DNA from: Spirochaetia bacterium
Lineage (GTDB): Bacteria > Spirochaetota > Spirochaetia > CAKZLE01
NCBI GenBank assembly: GCA_963677595.1
Contig: OY782041.1
Location: 352,001 to 416,000, forward strand
DNA length: 64,000 bases
Reading direction: 5' to 3'
The notes beneath the pieces are model-generated. The model saw only the letters and a program-made list of their open reading frames with translations. It did no database searches and had not been told where the DNA came from. The position numbers and the translations under genes were made by a program. This document shows, piece after piece, positions 4,863 to 27,173 of this stretch. Within the stretch, counting starts at the first letter, position 1, and each line of letters begins with the position of its first letter.

Positions 4863-6379
4863 CTCTGTCTCTCCTTCATAAAATTACAATGTATGTAATT
4901 TAAATATCTTTTTAACGATGTTTTCTTATCGTTATTTGATTATAACCGATTATTACTATTCTTACCACCATATTCCGAATTGACTCATCAGTAGACAAAC
5001 TGCCCTCTTTTATCTAAGATCTTCTCATACCTTCAGGAGCAGGCAGCATGGGAACCATCAAGACCGTCTCCGGCAGTATCTGCCGCGGGGCACTGGTAAC
5101 AGTCTCTCTTCTCTACATGATCGGGGCACTCTCCCCGGCAGACCTGTCATCGGTCCTGGGGATCGGCGGCTTACTGATCATGGTCTCAGCGATCCCCCTG
5201 GTCAAACCCTCCTACGGGCGGCCGGCTGCTGTCTTCATCCTGCTGTCAGCGATCGGATACATCCGGTACGGCATGACTGTAGATGTGGTGACAGCCGGGA
5301 TCAACTCCATGCTTTCGATCGTTGCCATCATCACCGTGCTGCAGCTCTTCATCGTCCCTATCAGGGCTGGAGGCTATGATACCGCCCTGAACTGGTACCT
5401 GAAGAGACGCTTCACCACTGAGGCAGGACTCTATCTCTTCATCAGCCTCATCGCCCATTTCCTGGGAAGCTTCATGCTCTTCGGGACGGTCCCGATGCTC
5501 TATGCCCTCTTCGGGAATTCCCTGAAGGAGATGGTGCGTGAACCGGGCAGGTTCACTGTCACAGCCATTGGCAGAAGCTTCACCCTGGTCACACTCTGGG
5601 CCCCCGGGGCGGTCAGCGTCGTATTGGTGCTTGAGAGTACCGGGGCAGCTTGGACCGCGATCCTCCCATCAGTACTGGCGATCGCCCTCCTCGGGCTGCT
5701 GACCTCCCTGGGCCTGGAGCAGGTACGCATGTTCAAGGGAAGGAAGGTCACAGCAGATGAGGCAGATACCCTGTCGGTATCGAACGGTGACAGCAAAAAG
5801 ATCGTCACGCTCTTCGCCGTCGCCGGGATCCTGCTGCTGGGTATTCTGGCTATGGACCTGCTGGACCTGCTCTCAAGCGGTTCAGCACGTGTGATCGTAG
5901 TCGGGCTGGTCATCGCACTGGCCTGGACCTCCCTGCATAGGAAAGGGGGCAATGTACGGAAACACATCGGTGAGTACTGGAACAACTCGCTGAGCATCGT
6001 ACCGGACCTGACGGTGATGTTCCTCGCGATGGGGATCTTCACCGAGGTCATCAAAACCACCCCGTTCATAGGGAATATTGAAAGCTGGATCATGGAGACA
6101 GCCACTAGTATGGGAGCCTTCTATTTCTTCATGATCCCACCGCTGATCATCGGGCTCTCCCTGACCGGGATCCATCCCTTCATCGGGGTGATCTTCCTCG
6201 GGAGCCTGCTCTCATCAGCCATGCCTGACCAGACCAGTCTGACGGCCCTCGCCCTCCTCCTTGGGAGCGCCATCTCCTATTCCGTCTCACCCTTCGCAGG
6301 CACGCTCATCACCCTGTCACGATTCGCAGGCTGTTCACCGGCGAAGGCAGCATTCTCCTGGAACGGGATCTTCTCTTTA

Positions 6380-7676
6380 GGATCTGTGTATAAATAATCT
6401 ATGCGAATATTTCTGATGGAGCAATGCAGTAATTCCATTCTCCATGAAATTCATTCCTCGTAATATTGATCCTCTCAAGTTCTTCAGCTGATACCTTTAT
6501 CCCTGTCTCATAGATGTTCTGATCCAATTCGCATTGTATCTTCAATCCTGATTCGGTCGTTGTTGACTCAATCAGACTGATTATGACAAGGAGGGTTTCA
6601 AGGGGTCTTCCCCTCCAATTCTTTGAGATGTAGCTAAACATTCGATGTTCGATCTTATTCCACTTTGAAGTTCCCGGTGGGAAATGGGAGACATAGATCT
6701 GCAATCCCGTTTCATTCGCCAGTTCCTGCAGTTCGGTCTTCCAGAGTCTGTTCCTGCTCCCGTTACTCCCACCACCGTCTGCGGTAATGTAGAGCTTTGA
6801 TGCTGAAGGGTACCGACTTTTGCCCATCTCATCCCACCATTCCCGGATAGAATTCACCGCAAACTTTGCCGTGTCTGAGCTGACCCCAAGATTGATGAAT
6901 CCTTCATTCTTCGCTATATCATAGATCCCATACGGTGCAACCTTCCCAAGATCAGGCAGCGGAAAGTCGTGATCAAGGACTTTCACCGGATTCCCTGATT
7001 TAGCATACTCTGCACCCTGATTCTTGAAATTACCCACCAGTTCTTTCTTTTTACAATCAATAGAGATCACTGGTAACCCTTCTGCTATGAATCCTTTAGC
7101 CATCTCGTTGATATGCTGAAATTGCTCATCCCGGTCAGGATGGGGCTTCCCGACCTGCAGCATCTTCTGGTTTAGCTGCATGCTGTAGCCCAAGTCGGAA
7201 AGCATCTGCCTGACCTTGGAAAACGAGACCTGAAAGCCCTGTTTACCGAGGACGTCACTCAGGTTCCTTAGACTTTTTGTCGTCCACAGCAGTGGTGATT
7301 CCGGATTACCGAAACTGCTGTCAGCAACCAGGGCTTCTAACGCCTTCGTGATGCCAGGTTGCGTCTCTTCTATTGGCTTGCGGCCACCACCTTCCTTCCG
7401 AATCCTGGTTGAAGATCTTGGATCAACAGGTTCCCTGATCTCCTTGATCCCGGCAGCAATGGTATTACGAGAAACACCAAGCGCTTTACTGATCTGGGTA
7501 ATCCCTCCGCGACCAATACTCTCAGCCTCAGCTGCAAGATATTTACGCTTCTGACTCTCATCTAGTAGAGGAACTATGGTATGTATGCGTTTTATCGTTA
7601 TCTCATCGAGCATGCACCATTCTATCATGAGAAGACAAAGAAATCAATATTGCTTATGTTATTTATGCACAGTTCC
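6380..7676 (-). mobile_element. Complete ISAzo13-family insertion sequence (1297 bp)
   Basis: Terminal IRs GGATCTGTGTATAAATAA / GGAACTGTGCATAAATAA match at 16/18. A 3-bp target duplication TTA lies at 6377-6379 and 7677-7679. Confidence 0.92.
6399..7628 (-). CDS. ISAzo13-family DDE transposase
   Basis: ISIDCKKKELVGNFKN, ITADGGGSNGSR, HFPPGTSKWNKIEHRMFS and FHGEWNY are characteristic of this family. Confidence 0.95.
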   Translation of the reverse strand: MIEWCMLDEITIKRIHTIVPLLDESQKRKYLAAEAESIGRGGITQISKALGVSRNTIAAGIKEIREPVDPRSSTRIRKEGGGRKPIEETQPGITKALEALVADSSFGNPESPLLWTTKSLRNLSDVLGKQGFQVSFSKVRQMLSDLGYSMQLNQKMLQVGKPHPDRDEQFQHINEMAKGFIAEGLPVISIDCKKKELVGNFKNQGAEYAKSGNPVKVLDHDFPLPDLGKVAPYGIYDIAKNEGFINLGVSSDTAKFAVNSIREWWDEMGKSRYPSASKLYITADGGGSNGSRNRLWKTELQELANETGLQIYVSHFPPGTSKWNKIEHRMFSYISKNWRGRPLETLLVIISLIESTTTESGLKIQCELDQNIYETGIKVSAEELERINITRNEFHGEWNYCIAPSEIFA

Positions 7677-7725
7677 TTAGTACTCCTGCTCGAAGGATTC
7701 GCCGTCCTTACGGTCACGGCACTCC

Positions 7726-7947
7726 TTGTGTAGGGGAGCAGGGACCTATGCATATTTGGGTATTCATCAGATACTCAAAAATTGGAATAGAGATACCTTT
7801 CCGATGAAGCTAGAAGGAGATCCAAAAGCATGTAATGCTATGTATGCCCTGAAGGAAGCAAGTCGCATCGCCGGGGAGCACGGTATATCTGATATGACAC
7901 TGGAAGAGATCAATTCAGAGATAGCCGAAGCACGAAGTGACTCGTGA
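7726..7947 (+). pseudogene. Probable remnant of a small antitoxin (RelB/DinJ- or AbrB-like C-terminus)
   Basis: The tail GISDMTLEEINSEIAEAR resembles C-termini I recall from type II antitoxins. There is no good start or RBS and no toxin partner. Confidence 0.35.
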
Positions 7948-7977
7948 TCAATATCCCTGTATGCCGAACCTTTCTCC

Positions 7978-8820
7978 CTATTTCACTCCTCCGAAGGTCA
8001 ACCCACTGATATAGTACTTCTGAAGCATGAGCGACAGCAGGATCACCGGCAGGATCGCCACGACACCCATCGCCGCCATATAGGTCCAGCCCTGCTGCAG
8101 GATCCCGAAGGTGCTGAGCATCCCAAGGGGGAGTGTGCTCGTATCAGGGGAGGTCAACGTCAGGGCGAACAGGAAGTCATTCCAGGAGAAGATGAATGCG
8201 AACAGGGACGAGGTTACCAGTCCCGGCTTGCTCAGCGGTACCGCGATATAGAGGAAAGCCTGCACGGGATTGCATCCGTCAATGCGCCCTGCATCCTCGA
8301 GGTCCGACGGGATCGACTCGAAGATCCCGCTCATGAGCCAGAACGTGAATGCAGCGTTGTACACCGTATCGATCAGGATAACCGCAGCCCTGGTACCGAG
8401 CAGGCCAAAGTTCTGCATGATGATCCGAAAGGGCATCACCAGGACGATGGTGGGGAGAGCCCTGGTCATGAGGATCATGATCAGCAGCAGCTTCTTCCCC
8501 CTGAACTGGATCCTCGAAAAGGCATAGCCTGCCGGGACTCCTATCAGGAGGGAAAGAACCATGGTTCCCAGCGAAATCACCAGGGAGTTCACGATCCAGC
8601 TGTTTATCGCCATGTTGGTGAAGACATACTTGAAATTATCGAAGATGAACGCACCGAAGAGCTTCGGAGGCAGCTTGAACATGGAGATGCGCTGGGCCAG
8701 TGACGTCGACAGGATCCAGACGACAGGCAGCGCGATGAATGCCATAATGAAGATGATCAGGAGGATCCGGAATATATTCATCACAGACTGAAAAGAATTG
8801 CTTTTACCGACTACCGCCAT
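7978..8820 (-). CDS. Carbohydrate ABC transporter permease (MalG-type)
   Basis: EAA motif IPSDLEDAGRIDGC, FSWNDF, and six TM segments. Confidence 0.93.
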   Translation of the reverse strand: MAVVGKSNSFQSVMNIFRILLIIFIMAFIALPVVWILSTSLAQRISMFKLPPKLFGAFIFDNFKYVFTNMAINSWIVNSLVISLGTMVLSLLIGVPAGYAFSRIQFRGKKLLLIMILMTRALPTIVLVMPFRIIMQNFGLLGTRAAVILIDTVYNAAFTFWLMSGIFESIPSDLEDAGRIDGCNPVQAFLYIAVPLSKPGLVTSSLFAFIFSWNDFLFALTLTSPDTSTLPLGMLSTFGILQQGWTYMAAMGVVAILPVILLSLMLQKYYISGLTFGGVK

Positions 8821-8821
8821 C

Positions 8822-9712
8822 TCAGGACTCCTTGTTCTCGTAGATGAATCGTATGAAGAAGACGCCGACGATCACACCGATGATCAGCAGCACATTTGAC
8901 AAGGCCGCAGCGTACCCGATCCGCAGCTGGTTCATCCCGACCTCATAGATCCTGAGGTTCGCGACCGTGGTCGAAGTACCGGGGCCGCCCCCGGTGATTG
9001 CCCAGATGATGTCGAAGACCTTCAGGGCATCAAGGGAACGGATGAGCAGCGCGACAAGCAGCGTCGGCCGCAGGAGCGGCAGCGTGATTCTGAAGAAAAG
9101 CGGGATCTCCCCTGCCCCGTCGATCCTTGCTGCCTCGTAGGGTTCGGAGGGCAGACTCTTCAGCCCGGCGAGTATGATGATCACCATCAGGGGTGTCCAT
9201 TCCCAGATGTCTACCGCGATGACGGCACCAAGGGCGAGGGACCGTTCAACGATGAGCCCCCTCCCGATATCGATGCCCAGCTTCCGGAGGTAATAGGTGA
9301 TCATGCCGAGATCCGGGTGGTAGAGGGACTTCCATACGAGCCCTGCCACCAGAGGGGTGAATACCGTGGGGATCAGGATGAATGTCCTGATGGCCTCCAT
9401 CACGGCATTCTCATGGTTCAGGAGAAAGGCTATGAGCATGCCGAACAGCACCTCTATCGTGACCGCGAAAAAGACGAAGACCAGCGTGGTGATCAGGGAC
9501 TTCAGGAACTGGGTATCCGCGAGCATCTCACGGTAGTTGTCCAGTCCATTGAACACCGGGGTCCTGCCCAGTTTCAGATCAAAGAACCCGATGAAGATGT
9601 TGTACAGCACAGGGTAGAGAAAGAAGATCATCATGTACAGGATGATAGGCACGAGAAACCACATGAGGCTTTTCTTCTTCTTGTCGATGGATAGCAGGGA
9701 GCTGATGGTCAT
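8822..9712 (-). CDS. Carbohydrate ABC transporter permease (MalF-type)
   Basis: YEAARIDGA, DIWEWTP and TGGGPG motifs. ATG 9712 follows GGAGGA. Confidence 0.93.
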   Translation of the reverse strand: MTISSLLSIDKKKKSLMWFLVPIILYMMIFFLYPVLYNIFIGFFDLKLGRTPVFNGLDNYREMLADTQFLKSLITTLVFVFFAVTIEVLFGMLIAFLLNHENAVMEAIRTFILIPTVFTPLVAGLVWKSLYHPDLGMITYYLRKLGIDIGRGLIVERSLALGAVIAVDIWEWTPLMVIIILAGLKSLPSEPYEAARIDGAGEIPLFFRITLPLLRPTLLVALLIRSLDALKVFDIIWAITGGGPGTSTTVANLRIYEVGMNQLRIGYAAALSNVLLIIGVIVGVFFIRFIYENKES

Positions 9713-9728
9713 TTGATCCTCCGACAAA

Positions 9729-9754
9729 GCCGGATGATGAAAAAGTCATCCGGC
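9729..9754 (-). terminator. Stem-loop after the solute-binding protein gene (mRNA stabiliser or partial terminator)
   Basis: GCCGGATGA...TCATCCGGC inverted repeat between the SBP and permease genes. Confidence 0.55.
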
Positions 9755-9783
9755 TCTGTTCTTAGTTCTTCAGTTGTAATGAG

Positions 9784-11133
9784 CTAGAAGATCGCCTTGA
9801 TCTCTTCTGCTGCAAGGTCGAGAGCTTCTTTTGCCCCAAGTTCATGGGTGATCGCCTGGTTCACCCGCAGTCCGAGGATATCCTGGATCTGGCTGTATTC
9901 AGGTACTCGTGGTCGGTAGTCGCCATCCCCATTCTCATACACTGCAAGGATCCTGCTCATCCATGGCATCTCCTGGTTCAGCGCGCTGTCAGTGAGCACT
10001 GAGTAGCGGATCGGTGCCCCGTTGTTCCTTGTCCATGCCAGCTGAGCGTCCTTGCTTGTGATGTACTTGATGAATTCCCAAGCCACTTCAGCATTCTGGT
10101 CTGATGAATCAGCATTGATGGAGATCCCCCATCCGCCTACACCGTATCCGGGGTTTGAGCCGGCGACTCTCGGGGGAACAGCCATGCCTGTCTTGCCGGC
10201 AACGAGAGAGATTGACTCATCCTCATACCCTGCACGTGCGATACTCCAGGAGGACTGCATGACAGTCTGGCCGGTCCTGTAGGAAGACTCCCGGTCATCC
10301 CACCAGTAGCCGATCGCACCCTGGGGAGCCCAATCGTCGAACAGTTCCACGAAGAATTCGAGTGAATCGACACATTCGCTGCTGTTGACCGTCACGTTCC
10401 CATTGCCGTCAAAGATCTGACCGCCGAAGCCCCTCATGAATTCCATCCAGTCCTGTGCTACTGCAGGGCCCCTGGCTCCGCAGGCAACGAGGCCATACAT
10501 GTTCTCATCCGGGCGGGTGAAGAACTCGGAGATGTCGGCGAGCTGGTCCATAGTCTCCGGGGTTTCCAGCTCATACCCGTATTTGGCCTTGAAAGCAGCT
10601 TTCTCTGCAGGATCCTCATAGAGGTCCTTCCGGTAGATCAGGCTGTTCGCATAGGCAGCCATCGGGTACCCGATCTGCTTGCCGTTCCAGTCACCCATGA
10701 CCCACAGGATCGGCATGATGTCATCATAATCGATCTCGGCTTTGTCCCTGGCGATCCAGCTGGTGAGGTCTTTCGTCCATCCCTCCTGCTCGAACTGACC
10801 GGTCCAGACAATGTCCATCGTAGCCAGGTCGTAATCGGCTGACCCGGTCGCGAAATCCTGGGTGATCTTCTGCTGCAGTTCCACATAGCCCAGGACGTCG
10901 ATACGGACATCTGCACCTGTCTTTGCCTTGAATTCAGCACTTAAGGTCGGAAGATGATCCGCAAACTGTTCAGCGGCCACGGCGAAATGCAGGACGACTC
11001 CCTCGTACGGAAGGGCCTGGCTTACCGGTTCCGGAGAAGGACTACTCGCTGTTTCCTTCGCCCCGCCTGCGAAGATCATCACACAGGAGAGAAGCATAAC
11101 CGAGACGATAACCATTACTCTACTCTTTTTCAT
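9784..11133 (-). CDS. Sugar ABC transporter substrate-binding protein (family 1)
   Basis: Signal peptide ending IFAGGAKE, plus YDLATMD, LIYRKDL, GGWGISIN and AWEFIKY. Confidence 0.93.
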   Translation of the reverse strand: MKKSRVMVIVSVMLLSCVMIFAGGAKETASSPSPEPVSQALPYEGVVLHFAVAAEQFADHLPTLSAEFKAKTGADVRIDVLGYVELQQKITQDFATGSADYDLATMDIVWTGQFEQEGWTKDLTSWIARDKAEIDYDDIMPILWVMGDWNGKQIGYPMAAYANSLIYRKDLYEDPAEKAAFKAKYGYELETPETMDQLADISEFFTRPDENMYGLVACGARGPAVAQDWMEFMRGFGGQIFDGNGNVTVNSSECVDSLEFFVELFDDWAPQGAIGYWWDDRESSYRTGQTVMQSSWSIARAGYEDESISLVAGKTGMAVPPRVAGSNPGYGVGGWGISINADSSDQNAEVAWEFIKYITSKDAQLAWTRNNGAPIRYSVLTDSALNQEMPWMSRILAVYENGDGDYRPRVPEYSQIQDILGLRVNQAITHELGAKEALDLAAEEIKAIF

Positions 11134-11199
11134 TTTCCACTCCTAAAAATATTTTCCATCCGAAAGCGCTGAGTCTTACCAAGTGCACCGGATTGGATT

Positions 11200-12228
11200 T
11201 CAAAAATTGATAGCGACCCTGAACGTATCCGGGTCGAGAGCCCGCTCAAAGGCTTTACCAGCCTCATTTGCATCCCACTGCTCGGAGAGGAACTCCTCCA
11301 CGCTGACCAGCCTGCCGGAAAGCAGGCGGGATGCGGTATAGAAGTCACTGGTTGCAGGGCTGTAGGAACCGGTGATCACATACTCCCCGTAGTGGACCCA
11401 GTTGGGGTCGAGCTTGATGGGGTCATTGGGATGGAACGAGCCATAGAACATCATGGTTCCCATCTTCTTGAGGTAGCCCAGGGCCTCCTCGGCTATGGAG
11501 GGTCTCGCGGCAGTGAAGAACACGTATTCAGCACCCTCCCCTGAGGTGATCCCTGAGATGACTGCCTTCGCGTCCTCATTGATCGGGTCAACAGCGTAAT
11601 GTGCCCCCGCCTTCAGGGCCAGCTGACGACGATCCTCTCGCGGCTCTACCATGATTACCCTCGTCCCCCGCAGGAGACTGAGTTTCAGGTGGAGCATCCC
11701 CATGATACCGGCACCGATGATCACCACCGTCTCCCCGAGGTCAGGGTTGGCCCGCTTGATACTGTGCACACAGCAGGCCAGCGGTTCGGTGAAGGCAGCT
11801 TCCTGGAAGCTTATATCACCCGAGACCGTGAACACCTTGTTCACATCCATGGCGATGAGCTCAGCGAGCCCGCCGCTGGACGGGATGTTGTCGTAGGACC
11901 GCTTCTCCGGTGTACCGCCGCAGAGGTTGTTGAACCCCTGGTAGCAGAACGAGCAGTGCCCGCAGTCATCAAGCGTCTTGAACACGACCCGGTCCCCTAC
12001 CTTGAAGGAGGTGATCGTCCCGTCAGGGATCTCCACGATCTCCCCTGCTGCCTCATGGCCGGGGATGAACGGCAGGTTCATGCTCGAGGCACCGGAGAAG
12101 ATACGCTGCTCCCAGGTGCACAGCAGGCAGGTATGGATCCGTATCAGGACCTGTCCATGCCTGGGTTGCGGAGCCGCTACGTTCACGAGCTCTGCCTTCC
12201 TGGTCCCGGTCACTGCTACCGCTCTCAT
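11200..12228 (-). CDS. Zinc-binding alcohol/polyol dehydrogenase (MDR family)
   Basis: GHE motif, CxxCxxC...C structural Zn site, EPLAC, and GAGIMG Rossmann motif. Confidence 0.92.
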   Translation of the reverse strand: MRAVAVTGTRKAELVNVAAPQPRHGQVLIRIHTCLLCTWEQRIFSGASSMNLPFIPGHEAAGEIVEIPDGTITSFKVGDRVVFKTLDDCGHCSFCYQGFNNLCGGTPEKRSYDNIPSSGGLAELIAMDVNKVFTVSGDISFQEAAFTEPLACCVHSIKRANPDLGETVVIIGAGIMGMLHLKLSLLRGTRVIMVEPREDRRQLALKAGAHYAVDPINEDAKAVISGITSGEGAEYVFFTAARPSIAEEALGYLKKMGTMMFYGSFHPNDPIKLDPNWVHYGEYVITGSYSPATSDFYTASRLLSGRLVSVEEFLSEQWDANEAGKAFERALDPDTFRVAINF

Positions 12229-12995
12229 AGGTTCCTCCCGGCTTCCGAGGCCGTCTTCCCGTTATGGACGATATCGACCAGAGCGGCTGTCAATGCGCCC
12301 GGGTCGGGATGCTGCCATACATTCCTGCCTATGGCTACCCCTTGTGCCCCGGCCTCCATAGCCTGTTCCACGACCAGGAACAGGTCCTGCAGGTTCTTCG
12401 ACTTTGCCCCGCCGAGGACGATCACCGGACGGAAGCAGCCGTCCACAATCGTCTTGAACTCAGCAGTGGTCCCCACAAAACTCGTCTTGATGATGTCAGC
12501 ACCAAGCTCAGCCCCGATACGGGCTGCCAGCCTGATGGTCTCGACCGTCTTCGCAGGCTCAGGAGAGAACCCGCCGGGGAGCATCTCTGCCAGGAGCGGC
12601 ATCCCCCAGGCATGGGCCTCTGCCGCGAGCTCTGACACATTCGTCAGGGTCTCGATCTCATTGACCGCACCGGGAAACCCCATGCATGCCAGGCAATCAG
12701 CCCCTGCCTGTAGTGCTGTCTCGGTATCGAGCAGCCGGTTCCCTGTGGGCAGGCTGGAAAGGGCGGAGTTGCCCCCATCCATACGGAGGATCAGTCCGGT
12801 TCCCTTCAACTCTTCCTCAAAACGCGATGCCATACCGTAACCGGCCAGCACTGCGTCAGCACCGCCGGCAACAACGGACCTGATGATACCTGAGGTATCC
12901 TGCATACCGGGAAGCACATCCAATCCAAGACCATGGTCCATCGCAACGACCACCGTCCTCTTGTCTTCCCTGAAGATGTTTCCGAGTCTACGCAT
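12225..12995 (-). CDS. Class I aldolase, DhnA/LsrF family
   Basis: VAMDHG, ELGADIIKT (Schiff-base Lys), VLGG and GVAIGRNVWQ. Confidence 0.9.
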   Translation of the reverse strand: MRRLGNIFREDKRTVVVAMDHGLGLDVLPGMQDTSGIIRSVVAGGADAVLAGYGMASRFEEELKGTGLILRMDGGNSALSSLPTGNRLLDTETALQAGADCLACMGFPGAVNEIETLTNVSELAAEAHAWGMPLLAEMLPGGFSPEPAKTVETIRLAARIGAELGADIIKTSFVGTTAEFKTIVDGCFRPVIVLGGAKSKNLQDLFLVVEQAMEAGAQGVAIGRNVWQHPDPGALTAALVDIVHNGKTASEAGRNL

Positions 12996-12996
12996 T

Positions 12997-14442
12997 TCAT
13001 TCTCCTTCTATCGTTATCTCATGAGTTTTTGTTCTCACGGCAGACAGCCTGTGGGATGTCTCCCGTATTCCTGCATATGTCGTATCGTATATCGCATACA
13101 GCTCATCCCAGAGGTCAGCATGCGGACCTTCAGGCTCGATGCTGAAGTTGATGTTCACCCACCTGTCAGTCAGTTCCCTGATGCTGCCGGCCCCGCCCGC
13201 ATAGGAGGCAAGGATCATGGCCCCTAAGGGAGCGGCATCTGTCTCCTTCATCGAATGGAACACAGCACCGGTGATGTTCGCCTTGTACTGGAGCAGGGCC
13301 CGGTTATTTGCCCCGCCCCCAACCGCGCGTATCGCTCCCATGTCGCGTGAACTTCCTCCATGTACGATCTCGATACACTGCCGCGTACCAAACGAGATCC
13401 CCTGGAGCACGCTCCGTACGAGTTCTTCAGCTGTCGTACCTGAGCTCATCCCGATGAACGAAGCTGAGGCCTTCTCATCCCACACGGGGCTTCGTTCCCC
13501 GTTGAGGTACGGCAGGTAGATCAGGGGGAGCGGTGTGCGAACGTCCATGGACCGTATAGCATCGATCGTCATTCCAGTGAGCCTGCTGACCCAGGCGATG
13601 GATGCCCCAGTCGAGGACATGGTCTCGATGCTCAAGCCTCGCTGCGGGATCACATGCAGGAGCGGAGTCGCTCCTTCTTCCCAGCATCGTGTGATGCAGG
13701 TGGAGGTCCCGGTCCCGTCGACCATCATGCCGTCATCCACAGCCCCGGCACCAATAGCCTCGCACCAGGCATCGATCCCACCCGTCACAACAGGAATACC
13801 AGCGGCCAGACCGCAGTCTTCGGCAAACTGACTGGATGTCACCCCGACGATCTCCCAGGATTCCACCAGTTCAGGGAACACCCCTGAGGGGATACCGCAA
13901 CATGCCGTATCCAGCGTCCTGGTCCCCTTGTCATAGAAAGCAAGTGTGGAGGCCGTCGAGTGATCCAGGCATGTTCTCCCGGTGAGGAGATAGACTGCCA
14001 GGTCCTTGGGGTAGAGCGCCGTGACCGGTTCCTGGAACAGGTCGTTCGATTCCCGATAGAGTTTCAGGAGCTTCGCCTCAAAGCAGGTGCCGTCCTTGGT
14101 GAACCCCGGGATCAGCTGTCTCAACTCACTCGCTGCATCGACTGCGGTATTGTCCTGCCAGGTGATGATGTCCGTCAGCAACTCGCCGTCAGCTGAAACG
14201 AGGATGATGCTCGGGCCATGCCCGCAGAAGCTTATTCCCTCGATGGCCTCATACCGTGCGGAACTAAATGCGGAGAGGTTCTGCATCAGTCTTCTGAACG
14301 CTTCGATGAAATACTCCTGTGAATGTATCCCGGGTTTGAACATTCCGGCAGGATACTGCCGGGAGATCACGTGCAGCTCACCGCCAGCGGTACCAAGCAC
14401 GGCCTTCAGGCTGCCGGTCCCAATATCGATACCCACGTACAT
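12997..14442 (-). CDS. FGGY-family carbohydrate kinase (xylulokinase-like)
   Basis: GIDIGTGSLK, ITWQD, GTGTS, LPYLNGERSP and VGGGA. Confidence 0.92.
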   Translation of the reverse strand: MYVGIDIGTGSLKAVLGTAGGELHVISRQYPAGMFKPGIHSQEYFIEAFRRLMQNLSAFSSARYEAIEGISFCGHGPSIILVSADGELLTDIITWQDNTAVDAASELRQLIPGFTKDGTCFEAKLLKLYRESNDLFQEPVTALYPKDLAVYLLTGRTCLDHSTASTLAFYDKGTRTLDTACCGIPSGVFPELVESWEIVGVTSSQFAEDCGLAAGIPVVTGGIDAWCEAIGAGAVDDGMMVDGTGTSTCITRCWEEGATPLLHVIPQRGLSIETMSSTGASIAWVSRLTGMTIDAIRSMDVRTPLPLIYLPYLNGERSPVWDEKASASFIGMSSGTTAEELVRSVLQGISFGTRQCIEIVHGGSSRDMGAIRAVGGGANNRALLQYKANITGAVFHSMKETDAAPLGAMILASYAGGAGSIRELTDRWVNINFSIEPEGPHADLWDELYAIYDTTYAGIRETSHRLSAVRTKTHEITIEGE

Positions 14443-14452
14443 TACAGCACCC

Positions 14453-15175
14453 CTACCTTTTCAGCGTCACGATATGCTTGTATCGGTCCGCTCGGTAGAC
14501 ACCTTCAGCATATTCGACCGGGCTTCCATCTGTCGCATAGGTCGTGTGCCTGATGATCAGGATAGGGTCACCTTTTGAGATACCCAGGGTGGAGGAGACC
14601 TCGTTCCCCGCGATATCGGCCTCAATGATCTTTGCAGCCTCACCGATCTGTATATGGTATGTTCCCTCGAGCAGGTCATAGATCGACTTGCTGAAATCAT
14701 CCTCTTCCGTCACACCAGTACTGGTCGCAAGGTAGTTCTCAAATACCGCGACCGGTTCATCTTCTACCAGCCTAAGTCGTTTTGCGTAGATCACCGGGTC
14801 CCCGGGATTGATCCGCAGGTGCTCCGCGATTCTCTCGCTGGCTGGGATCCGCAGGACCTCAAGCACCGAAGTGGCGATCTTGACTCCCTGCTGCGCCATC
14901 TTCTCGGTAAAACTCTGGAGCCTTGAGTTCCCGTCATCGGTCATCTTGGGATACGCCACGATAGTCCCGTACCCCTGCTTCTTCACCAGCAGGTCCTCGA
15001 AGACAAGCCCGTGTATTGCATTACGAACAGTGATCCGTGATATCCCGTACATCTTCTGGAGGTCCTTCTCACAGGGGATCAGGTCCCCAGGTTTGTAATA
15101 CCCCTCAAGAATCTGTTTCCTCAGTTTTTCCTGCAGTTGGAAGTAGAGTGGGACGCGACTGTTCTGATCCAGCAT
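14453..15175 (-). CDS. GntR-family regulator with UTRA domain (HutC subfamily)
   Basis: PLYFQL, PGDLIP.E, ISRITVRNAI and QGYGT, with a C-terminal UTRA ending YRADRY. Confidence 0.93.
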   Translation of the reverse strand: MLDQNSRVPLYFQLQEKLRKQILEGYYKPGDLIPCEKDLQKMYGISRITVRNAIHGLVFEDLLVKKQGYGTIVAYPKMTDDGNSRLQSFTEKMAQQGVKIATSVLEVLRIPASERIAEHLRINPGDPVIYAKRLRLVEDEPVAVFENYLATSTGVTEEDDFSKSIYDLLEGTYHIQIGEAAKIIEADIAGNEVSSTLGISKGDPILIIRHTTYATDGSPVEYAEGVYRADRYKHIVTLKR

Positions 15176-15193
15176 GACGGCTCCTTTTTCATC

Positions 15194-15251
15194 ATAACGT
15201 TAGAACGTTATAACGTTTCGTAGCATAACAGGTACATACCAATACTGTCAA
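15194..15251 (-). promoter_or_regulatory. Sigma70 promoter with overlapping palindromic operators for the GntR-sugar operon
   Basis: On the minus strand, TTGACA (15251-15246) and extended -10 TGtTATGCT. Three AACGTT hexamers form ATAACGTT-AG-AACGTTAT (15194-15211) and AACGTTATAACGTT (15204-15217) at the expected start site. Confidence 0.7.
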
Positions 15252-15410
15252 GTCCCTGCCCGTAAACCTGCGAATACGATAAGACTCTGTGAAAGCTATA
15301 CGGTTCTCATATGCTTGCAAATTTATACATAAGTTCTTCGTGTTTCTTATAGACATACCATAGTATACATATAGTAAAGTATAGTCATACTATACAAAGG
15401 AGTTCGTTAC

Positions 15411-15725
15411 ATGAAAAGAGTGCTATTTCTCGTGCTTGTGATCATTTTAGCCAGTTCCCCGCTGTTTGCGCAGGAAGTTCCCGCGATCCAGGACGATGAC
15501 CTGGACAGTATCAACCTTGACCTGGATAGCCTGGGTAAGGATCTCGCGATCGGCATAGCCGTATCAGGGGCTGCTATCGGTATCGGGACGCTTGTAGCTT
15601 CTGCTCTGGATGGCATAGCCCGTAACCCTGAACTGGAATCAAAACTTACCAATACTATGTATACCGGTATCATTGCCTGCGCCGGGCTTGCCCTCGGGGC
15701 CATGGCAGTGACCATCGCTTTCTAA
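15411..15725 (+). CDS. Orphan F-type ATP synthase subunit c homolog lacking the ion-binding carboxylate
   Basis: GAAIGIG helix and polar loop GIARNPE are c-subunit hallmarks. It has a signal peptide and acidic linker, RBS AAGGAG, and no D/E in helix 2. Confidence 0.8.
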   Translation: MKRVLFLVLVIILASSPLFAQEVPAIQDDDLDSINLDLDSLGKDLAIGIAVSGAAIGIGTLVASALDGIARNPELESKLTNTMYTGIIACAGLALGAMAVTIAF

Positions 15726-15753: not shown

Positions 15754-15785
15754 AAGCCCTTCCTGTTCCGGGAGGGCTTTCTTTT
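15754..15785 (+). terminator. Rho-independent terminator
   Basis: AAGCCCTTCC-loop-GGGAGGGCTT followed by TCTTTT. Confidence 0.75.
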
Positions 15786-15932: not shown

Positions 15933-15969
15933 CCTGACAAAATTATGCCATATTTCCCCCCTATGATAT
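15933..15969 (+). promoter_or_regulatory. Promoter / response-regulator box, copy 1
   Basis: CCTGACAAAATTATGCCATATTTCCCCCCTATGATAT is 32/37 identical to the reverse complement of 19962-19998 and includes a -10-like TATGAT. Confidence 0.7.
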
Positions 15970-16008
15970 GACTCATAGAACGGGTGACAACCCATGAGGA
16001 GAAACAGT

Positions 16009-19348: not shown

Positions 19349-19924
19349 TCAGTGGGACCCATGCCCGTGGGTCCCTGCAGCAGGAGCACCAGGGCTTGCC
19401 TGTGCTGGGGGTGCAGCATGTTCATGGACAGGGGGTGAAGGCACCTGTGTCAGGTCCGTACCCTCTTCAGAGTCGGGCTCTGTCTCAGTCACTGTACCGA
19501 TACCGCTGTCAACACCGACAGCCGCATGGAGTTCGTGCTGATAGTGCGTCTGAGCCCCAGGTGCATCAAGAGATGCAGCCCCGGTATATGTCACATTCGC
19601 TCCCCCGAACTCCACCAGACCGAGTATACTGGCGAGGGAGGCAAGTTCCTCATCCGTGAGTTCTGCGTCTTCGATCCCGGCAGCGACTGCAGCGTAATCG
19701 AAGCTGCTCCCGTCAGAGAAGCCTTCCAGCCCCAGGATATCGGCAAGTGAAGCCAATTCCTCGTCCGAGAGTGCGTCCTCTGCTGTTCCTGCATCGAGGA
19801 GGGCAGACTGTATGTCAGATACCGTCGTGAGGGCCTCGCTTTCCGATGAGCCCCCGGCAAAGGCCGCACCACATACCAGTACCGTCAGCATGATGCTCAG
19901 CACCACAATCTTCTTCATGTTCAT
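19349..19924 (-). CDS. Secreted acidic protein with an internal duplication and His-rich C-terminus
   Basis: Leader ending AFAGGSSE, repeats LSDEELASLADILGL / LTDEELASLASILGL, tail THGHGSH, and RBS AAGGAG. Confidence 0.8.
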   Translation of the reverse strand: MNMKKIVVLSIMLTVLVCGAAFAGGSSESEALTTVSDIQSALLDAGTAEDALSDEELASLADILGLEGFSDGSSFDYAAVAAGIEDAELTDEELASLASILGLVEFGGANVTYTGAASLDAPGAQTHYQHELHAAVGVDSGIGTVTETEPDSEEGTDLTQVPSPPVHEHAAPPAQASPGAPAAGTHGHGSH

Positions 19925-19961
19925 CCTCTTCTCCTTGCGGGTCGTTACCCAATACCTGAGG

Positions 19962-19998
19962 ATATGATACGGGGGAAATATGACGCAATTTTGTCAGG
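19962..19998 (-). promoter_or_regulatory. Promoter / response-regulator box, copy 2
   Basis: The minus strand reads CCTGACAAAATTGCGTCATATTTCCCCCGTATCATAT, matching 15933-15969. Confidence 0.7.
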
Positions 19999-24034: not shown

Positions 24035-25469
24035 ACAGACCTCCTTGGTATTCTCTCTGCGGACAGCTTGAAGACCTGTTCGGGCTGCCCGCAGGAACTC
24101 ATAAAAAAGATTATCAGCTTGTATATGGCATGGAGTGGGAGGGCATGGCGAGCTGTACAGACATACACAGGCTCTATGTTCAATTATATGACCGCATTCT
24201 GAGAAGTCAACGTTATATTCATAATATTATTGAGTTTCTTTCTATGTTTCTTTGAGTGTTTTTATCTATTCACCTGCTATACAATCACTTTTACCATGCA
24301 CCCTATCAGTGATCATGGTATAGGGCTACCCTATGTGTCATTCCGTATGATACCTCATTCTGAACCCAGCAGGATGCTCCCCTCCACTGACAAGCCTGCC
24401 GGTATCTGCTACACTGATGCCATTCCTGGCAGTATCAGCCGGGGACTATCTCCCATATCATGGAGGCACTTCAGATGAGACATGACATACAGTTCCCCAG
24501 GATGGCCATGGGCACCTGGACCTTCGCAGGCGATACGATCTGGGACGCCTCTGACGAACAGGAGTCTATCTCCGTCATCCATGCTGCCCTCGATATGGGC
24601 ATCACCCTCTTCGACTCCTCCCCCAATTACGGGAACGGGCGCAGCGAGTCCATCCTGGGTAGGGCCCTGGCTGATCACCCTGAAGCTATGGTCGCAACAA
24701 AGACCAAGATCCAGGGGCAGAGTCGTGACGCTTTGAGGGCTGCTGTAGAAGGTAGCCTGAGGAGGCTCGGAAGAGAAGCGATCGACCTCATACAGATCCA
24801 TTGGCCGGGCACTCCCGAGGAGACCGCTGAGGCACTGGGACTCTTCATGGAGATGCGTCAGGAAGGGGAGATCCGGGCTGTCGGGGTATGTAATTTCGGA
24901 GTATATGACCTGAAAGAGACTGCAGGCTATCCCATCATCAGCAACCAGCTGCCGTACAACCTGATGTGGCGGGTCATTGAGAGGGAGATAGCTCCTCTTT
25001 CCAAAGAGATGGGGAAGCAGGTATGGGTCTATTCCCCGCTTCAGCAGGGGCTGCTGACCGGGAAATATTCCGACCTCACTGGTTTCCCATCGGGGAGGAA
25101 ACGTACACGGCATTATGCATCCTCTCATCCAGCAGCGAACCATGGTGAGGCAGGAATGGAAGCTGAGACACAGGCTGCATTGACAGGATTCCTTGAGATA
25201 GCTGAAGAGACCGGTATTGGACCGCTGGAACTGGGGCTCCGTTATATCCCACATTCCTCACTTTCATGACGCACACATAGCAGGATTTTCCATTTCAGGA
25301 AAGGATTGAGACTACGAAGGGCTATTCATCCTTACCGATCCTCCACACGGCATAAAAATCGGCAAATCCGCCTGGTTGCTACCCCGTCTGAACAGACATG
25401 CTGATGATCAGGACAGTAACCAGCCTTCTCATAGGTTCTGAGGATCAGACGCAGGTACACCTACGAAGT

Positions 25470-27173
25470 TCATGCATGCAGAGAGGTCAGGACACACCTC
25501 ACCCCCTTGTCGTAGAATACGCGTTCATCAAGACCCAATGCAGACAGGAAGGCCAACTGACGGGAAGAGAGCGGATTTACCAGCACCGCTTCTGCTCCCA
25601 TCTCTGCCGCCATGATACCGCCAAACACGGTACTCATCATGAATGAAGTCGGCTTTGCCGTCGGTTTGTTGTCCCAGCCTGGTACCGTAGTACCTTCCTT
25701 CTGGAGATACCGCCGCATCTGCCGCTCCATCAACCGCCAGACCATCAGGGCGATCACGAGAATCATCCCCAATGCATCTATGCGGGAAGGGGTTTTCAGA
25801 AACAGGTCATTGACTACCAGGGGATCCTTGAGGAATGAAAAATCACTCTCGATCCCATACTGGCCTTTGTACGTACGCAGTACCGATGCGGCATCAAGCG
25901 ATGCAACAGCAACATTGGTAAGCAGCACAAAACATCCTGCCTGCTCTCTGAGCACCTGCAGCTTGTCCGACTTTTCGGTGATCTCCCAGTTCAACTCATA
26001 CCGCAGATCTACAGGCGGCGGACCCTCCTTCGGGGGACGTCCACGACGCCGAACCGCCACTTCTTGGATCGTAACCGTTAACGAGTGCAGCGGGGAAGAG
26101 ACCGCAGCGAGGTTGGCAGCAGCAACCTGCGCATCTTCGCTGCAGTAATACTGTCGCTGAACTTTCTTCAATTTCCCGTTCAGCTCCTTCAACGATTGCT
26201 CAATCGCTTTGTCAATCTTCTTCTGCCTTCGCTTATCATGGGAACTCGAATGTATCACGACCCCGCGATAGGGCTTTTCATACAACGTTACCGTCGTCTC
26301 GCACCCCTTATAGATCGCAGGAGGCCGGTTCTTCCCTGTTGGTGTTTCAGCCATCATGCCTATGGGACTCCAGCGACCCGCTCCGATCGCTTCCCTTATT
26401 GCCTGGTCACATGCGCCGTAGGTTGCCGGAAGACGGCTGATGAATGGCATCGACCCTAAAGCCTCCAGATTCTCCTGCGTCACCATGGCCGAGTCTGCAA
26501 CATAGATACAGGCCCCATCTCCCAACCCATGTCGGGAGAGCAGTGTACTGATCCGTGTGAGCATCGCATTGTTAGACGTCTTGTCTGAGGAGTTCCCATT
26601 GAGGGTACTGCTGAAGATTGGGACCCCATGATCCACGCACAGTAACTCCGTCATGAACTGCTTGAGATCCGGTCGGTGATCCTTGGAGTGCCCCAGGACG
26701 ATCGAAGGCCCCGGGGTCTTTTCCTGCTCACTCCCCCGGTATTCCCCCCAGACACTCGTACTGGTAGTATCGTAACTGAGGGCATGCATATCCAGATCGA
26801 AGACCTGTGCTGCCCGAATCCCCAGTTCGGTCACAATCTTCGATGGGCCGGCATCGAAGATCGCATCCAGGGACCGAGCTATGTTCGTGTCATTGAACAG
26901 ATGCGGATCTACCTCCTGTCCCAGCAATAGGCTGCGGTTCTGCTGCTCGATGAACTGCTCGATCCGATACAGCGGCGACCGTCCATGCAGGACATCGAGC
27001 ACCATCGTCTGCACCACGAGCCCCGGAGATAGCTGCATACGGGTCTCCACCGCCGCATCCACGATGTCTCTCAACCCGAGCATGCGGCAGTAGGCCGCCG
27101 CAATGGGCAGGTAGGAATGGGTATAGATTCTGGTATGCTGAAACAGGGTTGAAAGGGGCGGAGTACTGGCCAT
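25470..27173 (-). CDS. IS1634-family transposase
   Basis: FNDTNIARSLD (DUF4277-like), YDTTS, GHSKDHRPDLKQ, NGNSSD, YVADSA and YKGQYGIESDFSFLKDP. Confidence 0.93.
   Translation of the reverse strand: MASTPPLSTLFQHTRIYTHSYLPIAAAYCRMLGLRDIVDAAVETRMQLSPGLVVQTMVLDVLHGRSPLYRIEQFIEQQNRSLLLGQEVDPHLFNDTNIARSLDAIFDAGPSKIVTELGIRAAQVFDLDMHALSYDTTSTSVWGEYRGSEQEKTPGPSIVLGHSKDHRPDLKQFMTELLCVDHGVPIFSSTLNGNSSDKTSNNAMLTRISTLLSRHGLGDGACIYVADSAMVTQENLEALGSMPFISRLPATYGACDQAIREAIGAGRWSPIGMMAETPTGKNRPPAIYKGCETTVTLYEKPYRGVVIHSSSHDKRRQKKIDKAIEQSLKELNGKLKKVQRQYYCSEDAQVAAANLAAVSSPLHSLTVTIQEVAVRRRGRPPKEGPPPVDLRYELNWEITEKSDKLQVLREQAGCFVLLTNVAVASLDAASVLRTYKGQYGIESDFSFLKDPLVVNDLFLKTPSRIDALGMILVIALMVWRLMERQMRRYLQKEGTTVPGWDNKPTAKPTSFMMSTVFGGIMAAEMGAEAVLVNPLSSRQLAFLSALGLDERVFYDKGVRCVLTSLHA

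Follow-up and report, generated by a model that had tools for sequence, protein, structure and literature searches.

The carboxylate of subunit c, which is Asp61 at the ion site of the Escherichia coli protein, is treated as the one indispensable residue of its family; in the A24D/D61G relocation this ion-site carboxylate has been moved to helix 1. The outer side of helix 2 meets subunit a in real rotors. The c1 subunit of Acetobacterium woodii and the V-type c/K subunits contain c-type hairpins without an ion site within a working rotor; in A. woodii, nine one-hairpin c subunits accommodate a single V-type subunit that has only one Na+ site (PMC9171764). A single E56Q exchange in a fused c10 abolished ATP synthesis (PMC8809890, citing Mitome 2004). 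The blank hairpins encountered in the literature each form one half of a fused, functional rotor subunit. Moreover, c-rings have been proposed to act without the catalytic sector: the isolated human c-ring (mitochondrial ACLC) conducts in bilayers (PMC9433415) and the yeast V-ATPase ring (Vo) conducts with about 8.3 nS (PMC4838861). The idea of a c-ring pore is contested (PMC10417283, PMC10743364).

The window analysed here, a DNA stretch of 64,000 nt, contains a stand-alone gene for a 104-aa homolog of subunit c that lacks this carboxylate, and the deduced features of the gene region are compiled in Table 1. The open reading frame starts with ATG and is preceded by a Shine-Dalgarno-like sequence, the ribosome-binding site of an earlier note on this DNA. 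The term monocistronic rests on the divergent gntR gene upstream and on a gap of 268 nt to the downstream neighbour, an outer-membrane beta-barrel gene, and is supported neither by the hairpin located in this gap nor by a promoter. The terminator of the earlier note is present as a hairpin that does not exceed chance expectation (1 found versus 0.5 expected; folding z-score -0.57), and no sigma-70 promoter consensus was found upstream of the gene on the + strand. No further match to PF00137 or PF00006 was detected in the window, in agreement with the stated absence of other atp genes from the 64 kb.

Table 1. Features of the carboxylate-less c-subunit gene region, in window coordinates
Feature	Position	Strand	Basis and remarks
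Carboxylate-less F-type c-subunit homolog CDS (P0001), 104 aa	15411..15725	+	ORF reading, Pfam, AlphaFold2 model, Foldseek
Shine-Dalgarno-like AAGGAG	15397..15402	+	8 nt before ATG; read from sequence
Predicted type I signal peptide, residues 1-20	15411..15470	+	style common in G000; cleavage inferred
Amphipathic N-terminal helix, about residues 28-44	15492..15542	+	prediction; sidedness inferred from c-subunit topology
Transmembrane helix 1 (45-66), ring-packing G48, G53, G57, G59	15543..15608	+	model and family alignment
Loop ARNPE (70-74); R71, P73, E74 invariant 15/15	15618..15632	+	family alignment
Remodelled helix 2 core (84-96); invariant G86, A89, C90; new GxxxG = G92 and G96	15660..15698	+	family alignment
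Ala91 codon GCC at Glu/Asp site	15681..15683	+	sequence
Intrinsic-terminator-like hairpin, then T-rich tail; alone not above chance	15758..15776	+	sequence
Intergenic stretch upstream, 88% copy at G000:C1:2306177-2306310	15232..15366	.	duplicated-segment remnant; not common to orthologs

The pattern of a signal peptide is present in the deduced protein; its loose form MK[KR]..L[FYW]A also occurs in 42 frames of the window's genome (G000), and cleavage is a prediction. Among near relatives, 7 of the 10 changed codons for residues 5-23 are non-synonymous. The "very acidic linker" described earlier turned out to be specific to the window allele; the family keeps an amphipathic helix there instead, with hydrophobic residues at positions 31, 34, 38 and 41 and Asn35 in 9 of 14 members. 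This helix is predicted to be continuous with helix 1 and would lengthen it toward the outer side of the membrane, provided that the usual c-subunit topology applies.

The window segments 7781-8202 and 15232-15366, flanks of a sugar-utilisation cluster, have a second copy with 88-93% identity at G000:C1:2305302-2306310 that is without a counterpart of window positions 8203-15231, and an antitoxin/PIN-like pair as well as transposase-like remains, named by eye, lie beside it. A contig of run X2 contains the same junction as this second copy and continues into the c-like gene. The upstream repeat at 15232-15366 was considered as a clue to co-regulation and rejected, as it represents a deletion remnant of the duplicated segment. 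Multi-copy elements resembling insertion sequences bracket the region at 6376-7683 and 25242-26000+; elsewhere in G000, 2 and at least 7 further copies of them, respectively, occur with 99-100% identity. In addition, a 71-nt stretch of 76% identity is common to window positions 15933-16003, upstream of the beta-barrel gene, and 19929-19998, upstream of a His-rich exported gene (19349-19924); by sequence similarity, both sites may serve as an operator for the two-component system that lies between them.

The assignment of the 104-aa protein to the c-subunit family is based on sequence and fold. The PF00137 search proposed earlier gave a match with an E-value of 1.4e-7 (32 bits, cut-off 24), so that a lack of c-family hits can be dismissed, and 2 of 4 scanned family members exceed this cut-off. 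The best NCBIfam matches are F-type c models, although every cut-off was missed (e.g. TIGR01260, 30.2 versus 43.95). The AlphaFold2 model (pLDDT 76.7, pTM 0.50) contains helices at residues 2-22, 28-71 and 73-103, and the top matches of Foldseek and HMMER searches against the PDB are all c subunits, with a best Foldseek E-value of 3.3e-4; for the Foldseek match 9itt, a TM-score of 0.82 on the target and an rmsd of 1.5 were obtained. The c-ring packing motif and the loop ARNPE of the earlier note were recovered, the former as the glycine motif at residues 53-59, and so were Ala91 twenty residues after R71 (R+20) and the absence of Asp and Glu from helix 2.

At the ion site itself, an ungapped HMMER alignment places the glutamate of the Bacillus PS3 c subunit on the Ala91 column. 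When 80 unrelated c loci among the matches listed were read in the same way, Glu was present at R+20 in 78 and Asp in one, and one was unreadable. The carboxylate-less family carries Val (11), Ala (2), Cys (1) or Leu (1) at this position and Glu or Asp in none of its 15 members, which disposes of the idea of a singleton allele. The facing helix-1 site (R-17) is occupied by Ala, Thr, Ile or Val and never by an acid, G59E of one member being the sole acid in the scanned helix stretches. The polar ligands of a Na+ site, which we take to be Gln at R-13 and Ser or Thr directly after the carboxylate (E+1), are likewise absent: R-13 is Ile in 15 of 15 members and E+1 is Gly in 13 of 15. Three trivial explanations were thus rejected, namely a register shift concealing an acid, since the alignments are ungapped and helix 2 is free of acids; a relocation of the carboxylate to helix 1 of the A24D type; and a sequencing error or singleton, considering the 15 members and a relative with a synonymous change in the Ala91 codon. 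In the databases, the members are annotated either as hypothetical proteins or as an ordinary c subunit, under the name "F-type H+-transporting ATPase subunit c", and the latter label is wrong for a family without the carboxylate.

The family comprises 15 sequences or clusters, including a 59-aa fragment, and all members are single-hairpin proteins. A single-sequence search with the window protein detected one weak canonical match only. Apart from G000, five genomes of the host family (f1) were searched, and three of them contain an ortholog. A profile of four orthologs recovered 13 members from the 7,995 candidates with the highest scores, and two full members plus a fragment were gained by searching 1.84 billion representatives exhaustively. 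The gene is present in 4 of 6 genomes of f1 and in 1 of 258 genomes of family f12, which was surveyed because the metagenome member L142 pointed there; the carriers are G000, G001, G002, G004 and, from f12, G421. Only f1 genomes scored as members in a 400-genome sample of the class, the other 11 matches being canonical c subunits with Glu. A viral sequence search with the window protein yielded 91 pattern matches, none of which was confirmed, and the ESM Atlas contained only ordinary c clusters (0.88-0.90). Among six longer matches, four of which were read, no fused form with the invariant Ala-Cys signature that directly precedes the ion site in the family was seen, which by the tool's own note is weak evidence. 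The 186-aa protein P0140, a double-hairpin c-like protein outside the carboxylate-less family, has Gln and Ile at its R+20 sites and is possibly a second, independent lineage without carboxylate, as far as its sequence indicates.

In a phylogenetic tree of 82 hairpin cores (66 columns), the 14 family rows included, from which the 59-aa fragment was left out, group as a single clade (100/99*), which falls with the F-type subunits at the split from K. The F-type rows, which had been chosen for their similarity to the family, consisted of every second of 80 listed loci and of 16 sequences from the class, and the exact sister of the clade within the F-type c subunits is not fixed by this tree. An origin from the K subunit of the host was rejected, as the family is placed inside F-type c.

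Some copies of the gene appear worn. The ortholog of G001 (L005:1489-1827) shows TTA instead of the expected ATG behind a good ribosome-binding site, and neither ATG, GTG nor TTG at the start position; it also carries G59E. Judged from its sequence, it might have become a pseudogene recently, be translated from a restart without the signal peptide, or reflect an error of assembly. The G002 copy is without the basic N-region. A 1039-bp record of run X1 contains a 68-bp, 91% copy of codons 68-90 (window 15612-15679) with unlike flanks, which was not found in G000 and looks like an internally deleted, decayed copy. These sequences suggest that the gene may be being lost in some lineages.

The codons of the family were compared by a Nei-Gojobori-type count. 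Whole-gene dN/dS ratios of 0.15-0.27 were obtained for 5 of the 15 pairs among six DNA sequences, dS being saturated in the remaining 10, and ratios of 0.05-0.24 for residues 41-104, likewise in 5 of 15 pairs; the core of the G001-G002 pair gave 0.05. In codons 30-96 of contigs that are about 90% identical and derive from another sample, all 18 of 18 listed differences are synonymous, including one at the third base of the Ala91 codon, against a synonymous share of 34% expected for a random transition. The nominal value of 3e-9 for this result is overstated, because the differences are non-independent and changes near contig ends are omitted from the listed ones (e.g. 11 of 16 listed for one record). 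By these codon counts the family is under purifying selection. The loss of the carboxylate (15 of 15 members) and the orphan status (six contexts) are conserved together with dN/dS values below 1, which is the check that the earlier note had proposed. If the gene were a slowly decaying, functionless remnant of an F-type operon that has been lost, this would account for its patchy presence, for the worn G001 and G002 copies, for the broken-looking copy of run X1 and for a location where a duplicated segment ends close to insertion sequences. However, the frames are open at 38-64% protein identity despite saturated synonymous divergence, the listed differences are synonymous throughout, and residues absent from canonical c subunits are invariant; a relic is thus very improbable, and at the family level it is largely refuted.

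The ATPases of the carrier genomes (86-97% complete) were catalogued. The genome G000 consists of one contig of 4.33 Mb (completeness 95.4%, contamination 6.28%) and contains three PF00137 matches: besides the c-like gene, two V/A-type operons (C1:2853618-2861888 and 3767881-3775065) contribute one K subunit each. The former operon encodes a single-hairpin K (C1:2856755-2857111) with a signal peptide, in which no Na+ ligands were seen, and the latter a double-hairpin K of 142 aa (C1:3774637-3775065) whose residues, as we presume, resemble the Na+ set of the E. hirae NtpK protein; these sequences suggest that H+ and Na+ enzymes occur side by side. Four of the five PF00006 matches in G000 are the A and B subunits of the two operons, and the fifth, a 666-aa frame, is taken to be Rho. 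F-type a and gamma subunits were found in none of the 6 genomes of f1, with positive results in 9 of 14 controls, and G421, in which two V/A-type K subunits are present, has no F-type a above the cut-off and no gamma. A tblastn search of G000 with F-type a, b, delta and gamma subunits from four operons gave nothing at an E-value of 1e-3, and AtpI was detected in none of the five carriers, its controls being positive in only 5 of 14 cases. The comparison of F- and V-type operons recommended earlier thus revealed only V/A-type ATPases in all five carriers.

The gene has no ATPase gene beside it in any of six contexts (G000, G001, G002, G004, G421/L142 and L140), and no neighbour is conserved across genera in these contexts. 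A LUD-domain neighbour is common to G001 and G002; two-component genes lie near the c-like gene in G000 and G001 only and were treated as a coincidence. No upstream motif common to six orthologs was seen, the G002 sequence contributing only 62 nt. In view of the missing carboxylate, Na+ ligands and F-type partner, the protein cannot function as a rotor subunit in the class from which it derives, and we infer from the sequences that a coupling of ion flow to rotation is excluded for it.

The proposal of the earlier note that a blank subunit brakes or re-gears a c-ring has to be modified accordingly: there is no F-type ring in the carriers, and a mixed ring with a V/A-type K subunit would be needed. 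In this form, a separately regulated blank would insert into the single-hairpin A-type K ring of the host and stall or re-gear the ATPase, and the E56Q exchange implies that one blank would be a strong brake, while the A. woodii rotor indicates tolerance of an unlike subunit. Three of the five carriers (G000, G004 and G421) possess a single-hairpin K, those of G000 and G421 share the signal-peptide architecture with the orphan, and helix 1 and the loop align with K free of gaps (hhalign probability 84.5, residues 7-78). Moreover, the most worn copies reside in G001 (97% complete) and G002 (86% complete), the two carriers in which no single-hairpin K was found, a distribution that is better fitted by a brake on K than by a ring acting alone. 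On the other hand, the family descends from F-type c and not from K, it has kept the F-type loop and the longer spacing (R+20 versus R+16 in K), the gene is never located in or beside an ATPase operon, G003 has a single-hairpin K without the orphan, and the G001-G002 core is constrained (see above) although neither genome yielded a single-hairpin K. Insertion into the K ring is consequently regarded as unlikely, even if it deserves more weight than the other alternatives.

A comparison with 209 canonical c sequences, selected for Glu or Asp at R+20, revealed which parts of the hairpin have been kept and which have been rebuilt. Residues G48, G53, G57, G59, D/E67, R71, P73, E74, M83 and G86 are as in canonical c, and the ring-packing glycines are conserved in 15 of 15 (G48, G53) or 14 of 15 members (G57, G59). 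By contrast, C90 is present in 15 of 15 members versus none of the 209 canonical sequences, and A89 in 15 of 15 at a position with Leu or Phe in 94% of canonical c. The family also has N84 (11 of 15 versus 8% canonical), Y88 (9 of 15; canonical Ala or Gly in 84%), G96 (12 of 15; canonical mostly Phe, Tyr, Ile or Leu), Lys or Gln at position 43 (14 of 14) and S52 (11 of 15). This pattern points to a new constraint rather than to drift at the conserved family-specific positions.

A model of four copies (residues 21-104) scored 0.60, compared with 0.00 for the best of 3 controls, four copies lying outside the calibration, in which 20 of 30 solved homo-pairs but just 1 of 23 single chains attained the mark. 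The contact agreement between runs was at least 94% and the pLDDT at least 77; the predicted contacts run between the first helices of adjacent copies, with C90 of one copy meeting residue 55 of the next. Because c-rings are solved and the score may reflect these known structures, it is a measure of likeness and not of binding, and the model covers side-by-side packing, not a closed ring. Residues 84, 88, 92, 95 and 99 would face outward according to this model, since they are absent from its listed interface.

These data bear on the possibility that the protein is not a ring subunit at all but an accessory hairpin that binds another membrane protein through a new small-residue face, with the loop as a structural turn. 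Helix 2 has indeed gained a conserved GxxxG and small residues at positions 85, 89 and 96, and the loop motif is reused in tandem in proteins other than c subunits; the retained helix-1 glycines and the four-copy score argue against this reading, which is doubtful to a degree close to that of the relic. The reuse of the loop also means that the "F1-contact loop" of the earlier note is no sign of motor engagement, as the same motif recurs 3-8 times in such proteins. The proteins P0124, P0127, P0130, P0156, P0172, P0230, P0235 and P0280 contain 3-8 tandem c-loop motifs, mostly with a spacing of 41-48 residues, in amphipathic helices, some with beta-sandwich domains and most with a signal-peptide- or lipoprotein-like start. 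Seven of the eight were scanned against Pfam, whereby five matched PF00137 and P0230 did not, P0280 being a precomputed match, and the Atlas gave no named cluster above 0.76. Their sequences would be compatible with a soluble repeat family possibly derived from the c hairpin.

The interior of a putative ring was deduced by comparison with spinach c14, in which the pore is lined by Ile11, Leu15 and Leu19, whereas Val26, Thr30 and Gln34 are located on the inside close to the stroma (PMC6897951). With a register inferred from Glu61, the first three residues correspond to positions 41, 45 and 49, which are large and hydrophobic in the family, and the equivalents of positions 56 and 60 face inside. 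The side chains at positions 52, 56 and 60 of helix 1 average about 115 cubic A in the family versus 161-166 cubic A in canonical c. With large residues retained at positions 41, 45 and 49 and side chains reduced at positions 52, 56 and 60 (about 115 instead of about 165 cubic A), a ring would stay plugged on the outer side and be roomier on the cytoplasmic side. A free c-ring acting as a gated, non-selective pore or leak would benefit from these smaller residues, among them Ser at position 52 in 11 of 15 members, and conduction by isolated human and yeast rings offers a precedent. Yet the outer positions remain large and hydrophobic, spinach itself has Val and Thr at the equivalents of 56 and 60, no F1 is present to gate such a pore, and the pore concept as such is disputed; a pore is therefore quite unlikely, though slightly less so than the accessory hairpin.

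The explanation that we favour, with a probability of roughly 0.45, is that a descendant of F-type c self-assembles into an ion-blind ring that is used outside any ATP synthase. Observed are the F-type ancestry, the family-wide loss of the carboxylate, the purifying selection and the orphan status, and no F-type partner was found. According to the proposed course of events, an F-type c subunit lost its ion-binding acid and was kept by selection in genomes without an F-type motor. The protein would be exported and its signal peptide cleaved; the hairpins are predicted to pack side by side via helix 1 and might close into a c-type membrane ring. This ring would carry no ions, its outer half being plugged by residues 41, 45 and 49 and lengthened by the N-terminal helix. 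The surface of helix 2 comprising N/Y/K84, Y88, A89, C90, G92 and G96 might represent a new binding face in place of the subunit-a track, and the ring would probably scaffold a partner other than subunit a. Both the conserved ring-packing surfaces and the rebuilt outer face are best matched by a ring that assembles by itself and has acquired a new binding partner, and a motor-less ring is likely, since the ion-carrying acid has been lost and a matching F-type motor is missing from the genome. Of the two readings offered in the earlier note, the repurposed c-ring scaffold is the better fitting one. The small and patchy family and the lack of a partner gene conserved nearby were counted against a ring scaffold. 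The broader statement that the family represents a c-ring freed from the motor, acting either as an ion-blind ring alone (scaffold or gated pore) or as a trans-acting brake dosed into another rotor class, is rather probable.

No description of a stand-alone carboxylate-less c family was found in a full-text literature search that covered few subscription papers, and tables of c-subunit surveys might list proteins of this family. Should a scaffold, a pore or a trans-acting brake prove true, the family would represent a naturally occurring blank c subunit encoded on its own, for which the search gave no description. With a selected gene that has neither the acid nor the motor, nature provides a test case for functions of c-rings that are independent of the motor, such as the disputed c-ring pore, and for the tuning of a rotary ATPase by blank subunits that the cell supplies in trans, within the limits set by a small family of 15 clusters.

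Judged by its sequence, the protein is plainly built from F-type c and yet lacks defining features of both c and K subunits, and it would work like neither of them. With F-type AtpE (PF00137; Bacillus PS3, 1wu0/7wem; Chloroflexus, 9itt) it shares, according to the models, the two-helix hairpin with a glycine-rich helix 1, as well as the E-x-x-A-R-[QN]-P-E loop, the clade membership and the predicted side-by-side packing. In contrast to AtpE, the family has neither Glu/Asp nor Na+ ligands, carries an invariant Cys beside the site, a remodelled helix 2 and an N-terminal helix extension, and is encoded outside an atp operon; F-type a and gamma were not found in the carriers, and the window protein stays below every NCBIfam cut-off. 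The single-hairpin K of G000 (C1:2.857 Mb) resembles the orphan in its signal peptide, linker, one hairpin and alignable helix 1, whereas it has the loop GEKPE, Glu at +16, an operon of its own and a position in a separate clade. Multi-hairpin fusions of F-type c with 3-5 hairpins and mixed Glu/Gln sites, c1-like gearing variants, were noticed in P0122, P0128, P0157, P0190 and P0275-P0279, with P0276-P0279 as database examples of the E/Q pattern. The isolated c-ring pores are ordinary carboxylate-bearing rotors released from the enzyme and not a dedicated gene family. Finally, the blank hairpins of A. woodii c1 and of V-type subunits are fused to a carboxylate hairpin and are part of an ATPase, whereas the orphan is a separate, whole gene.
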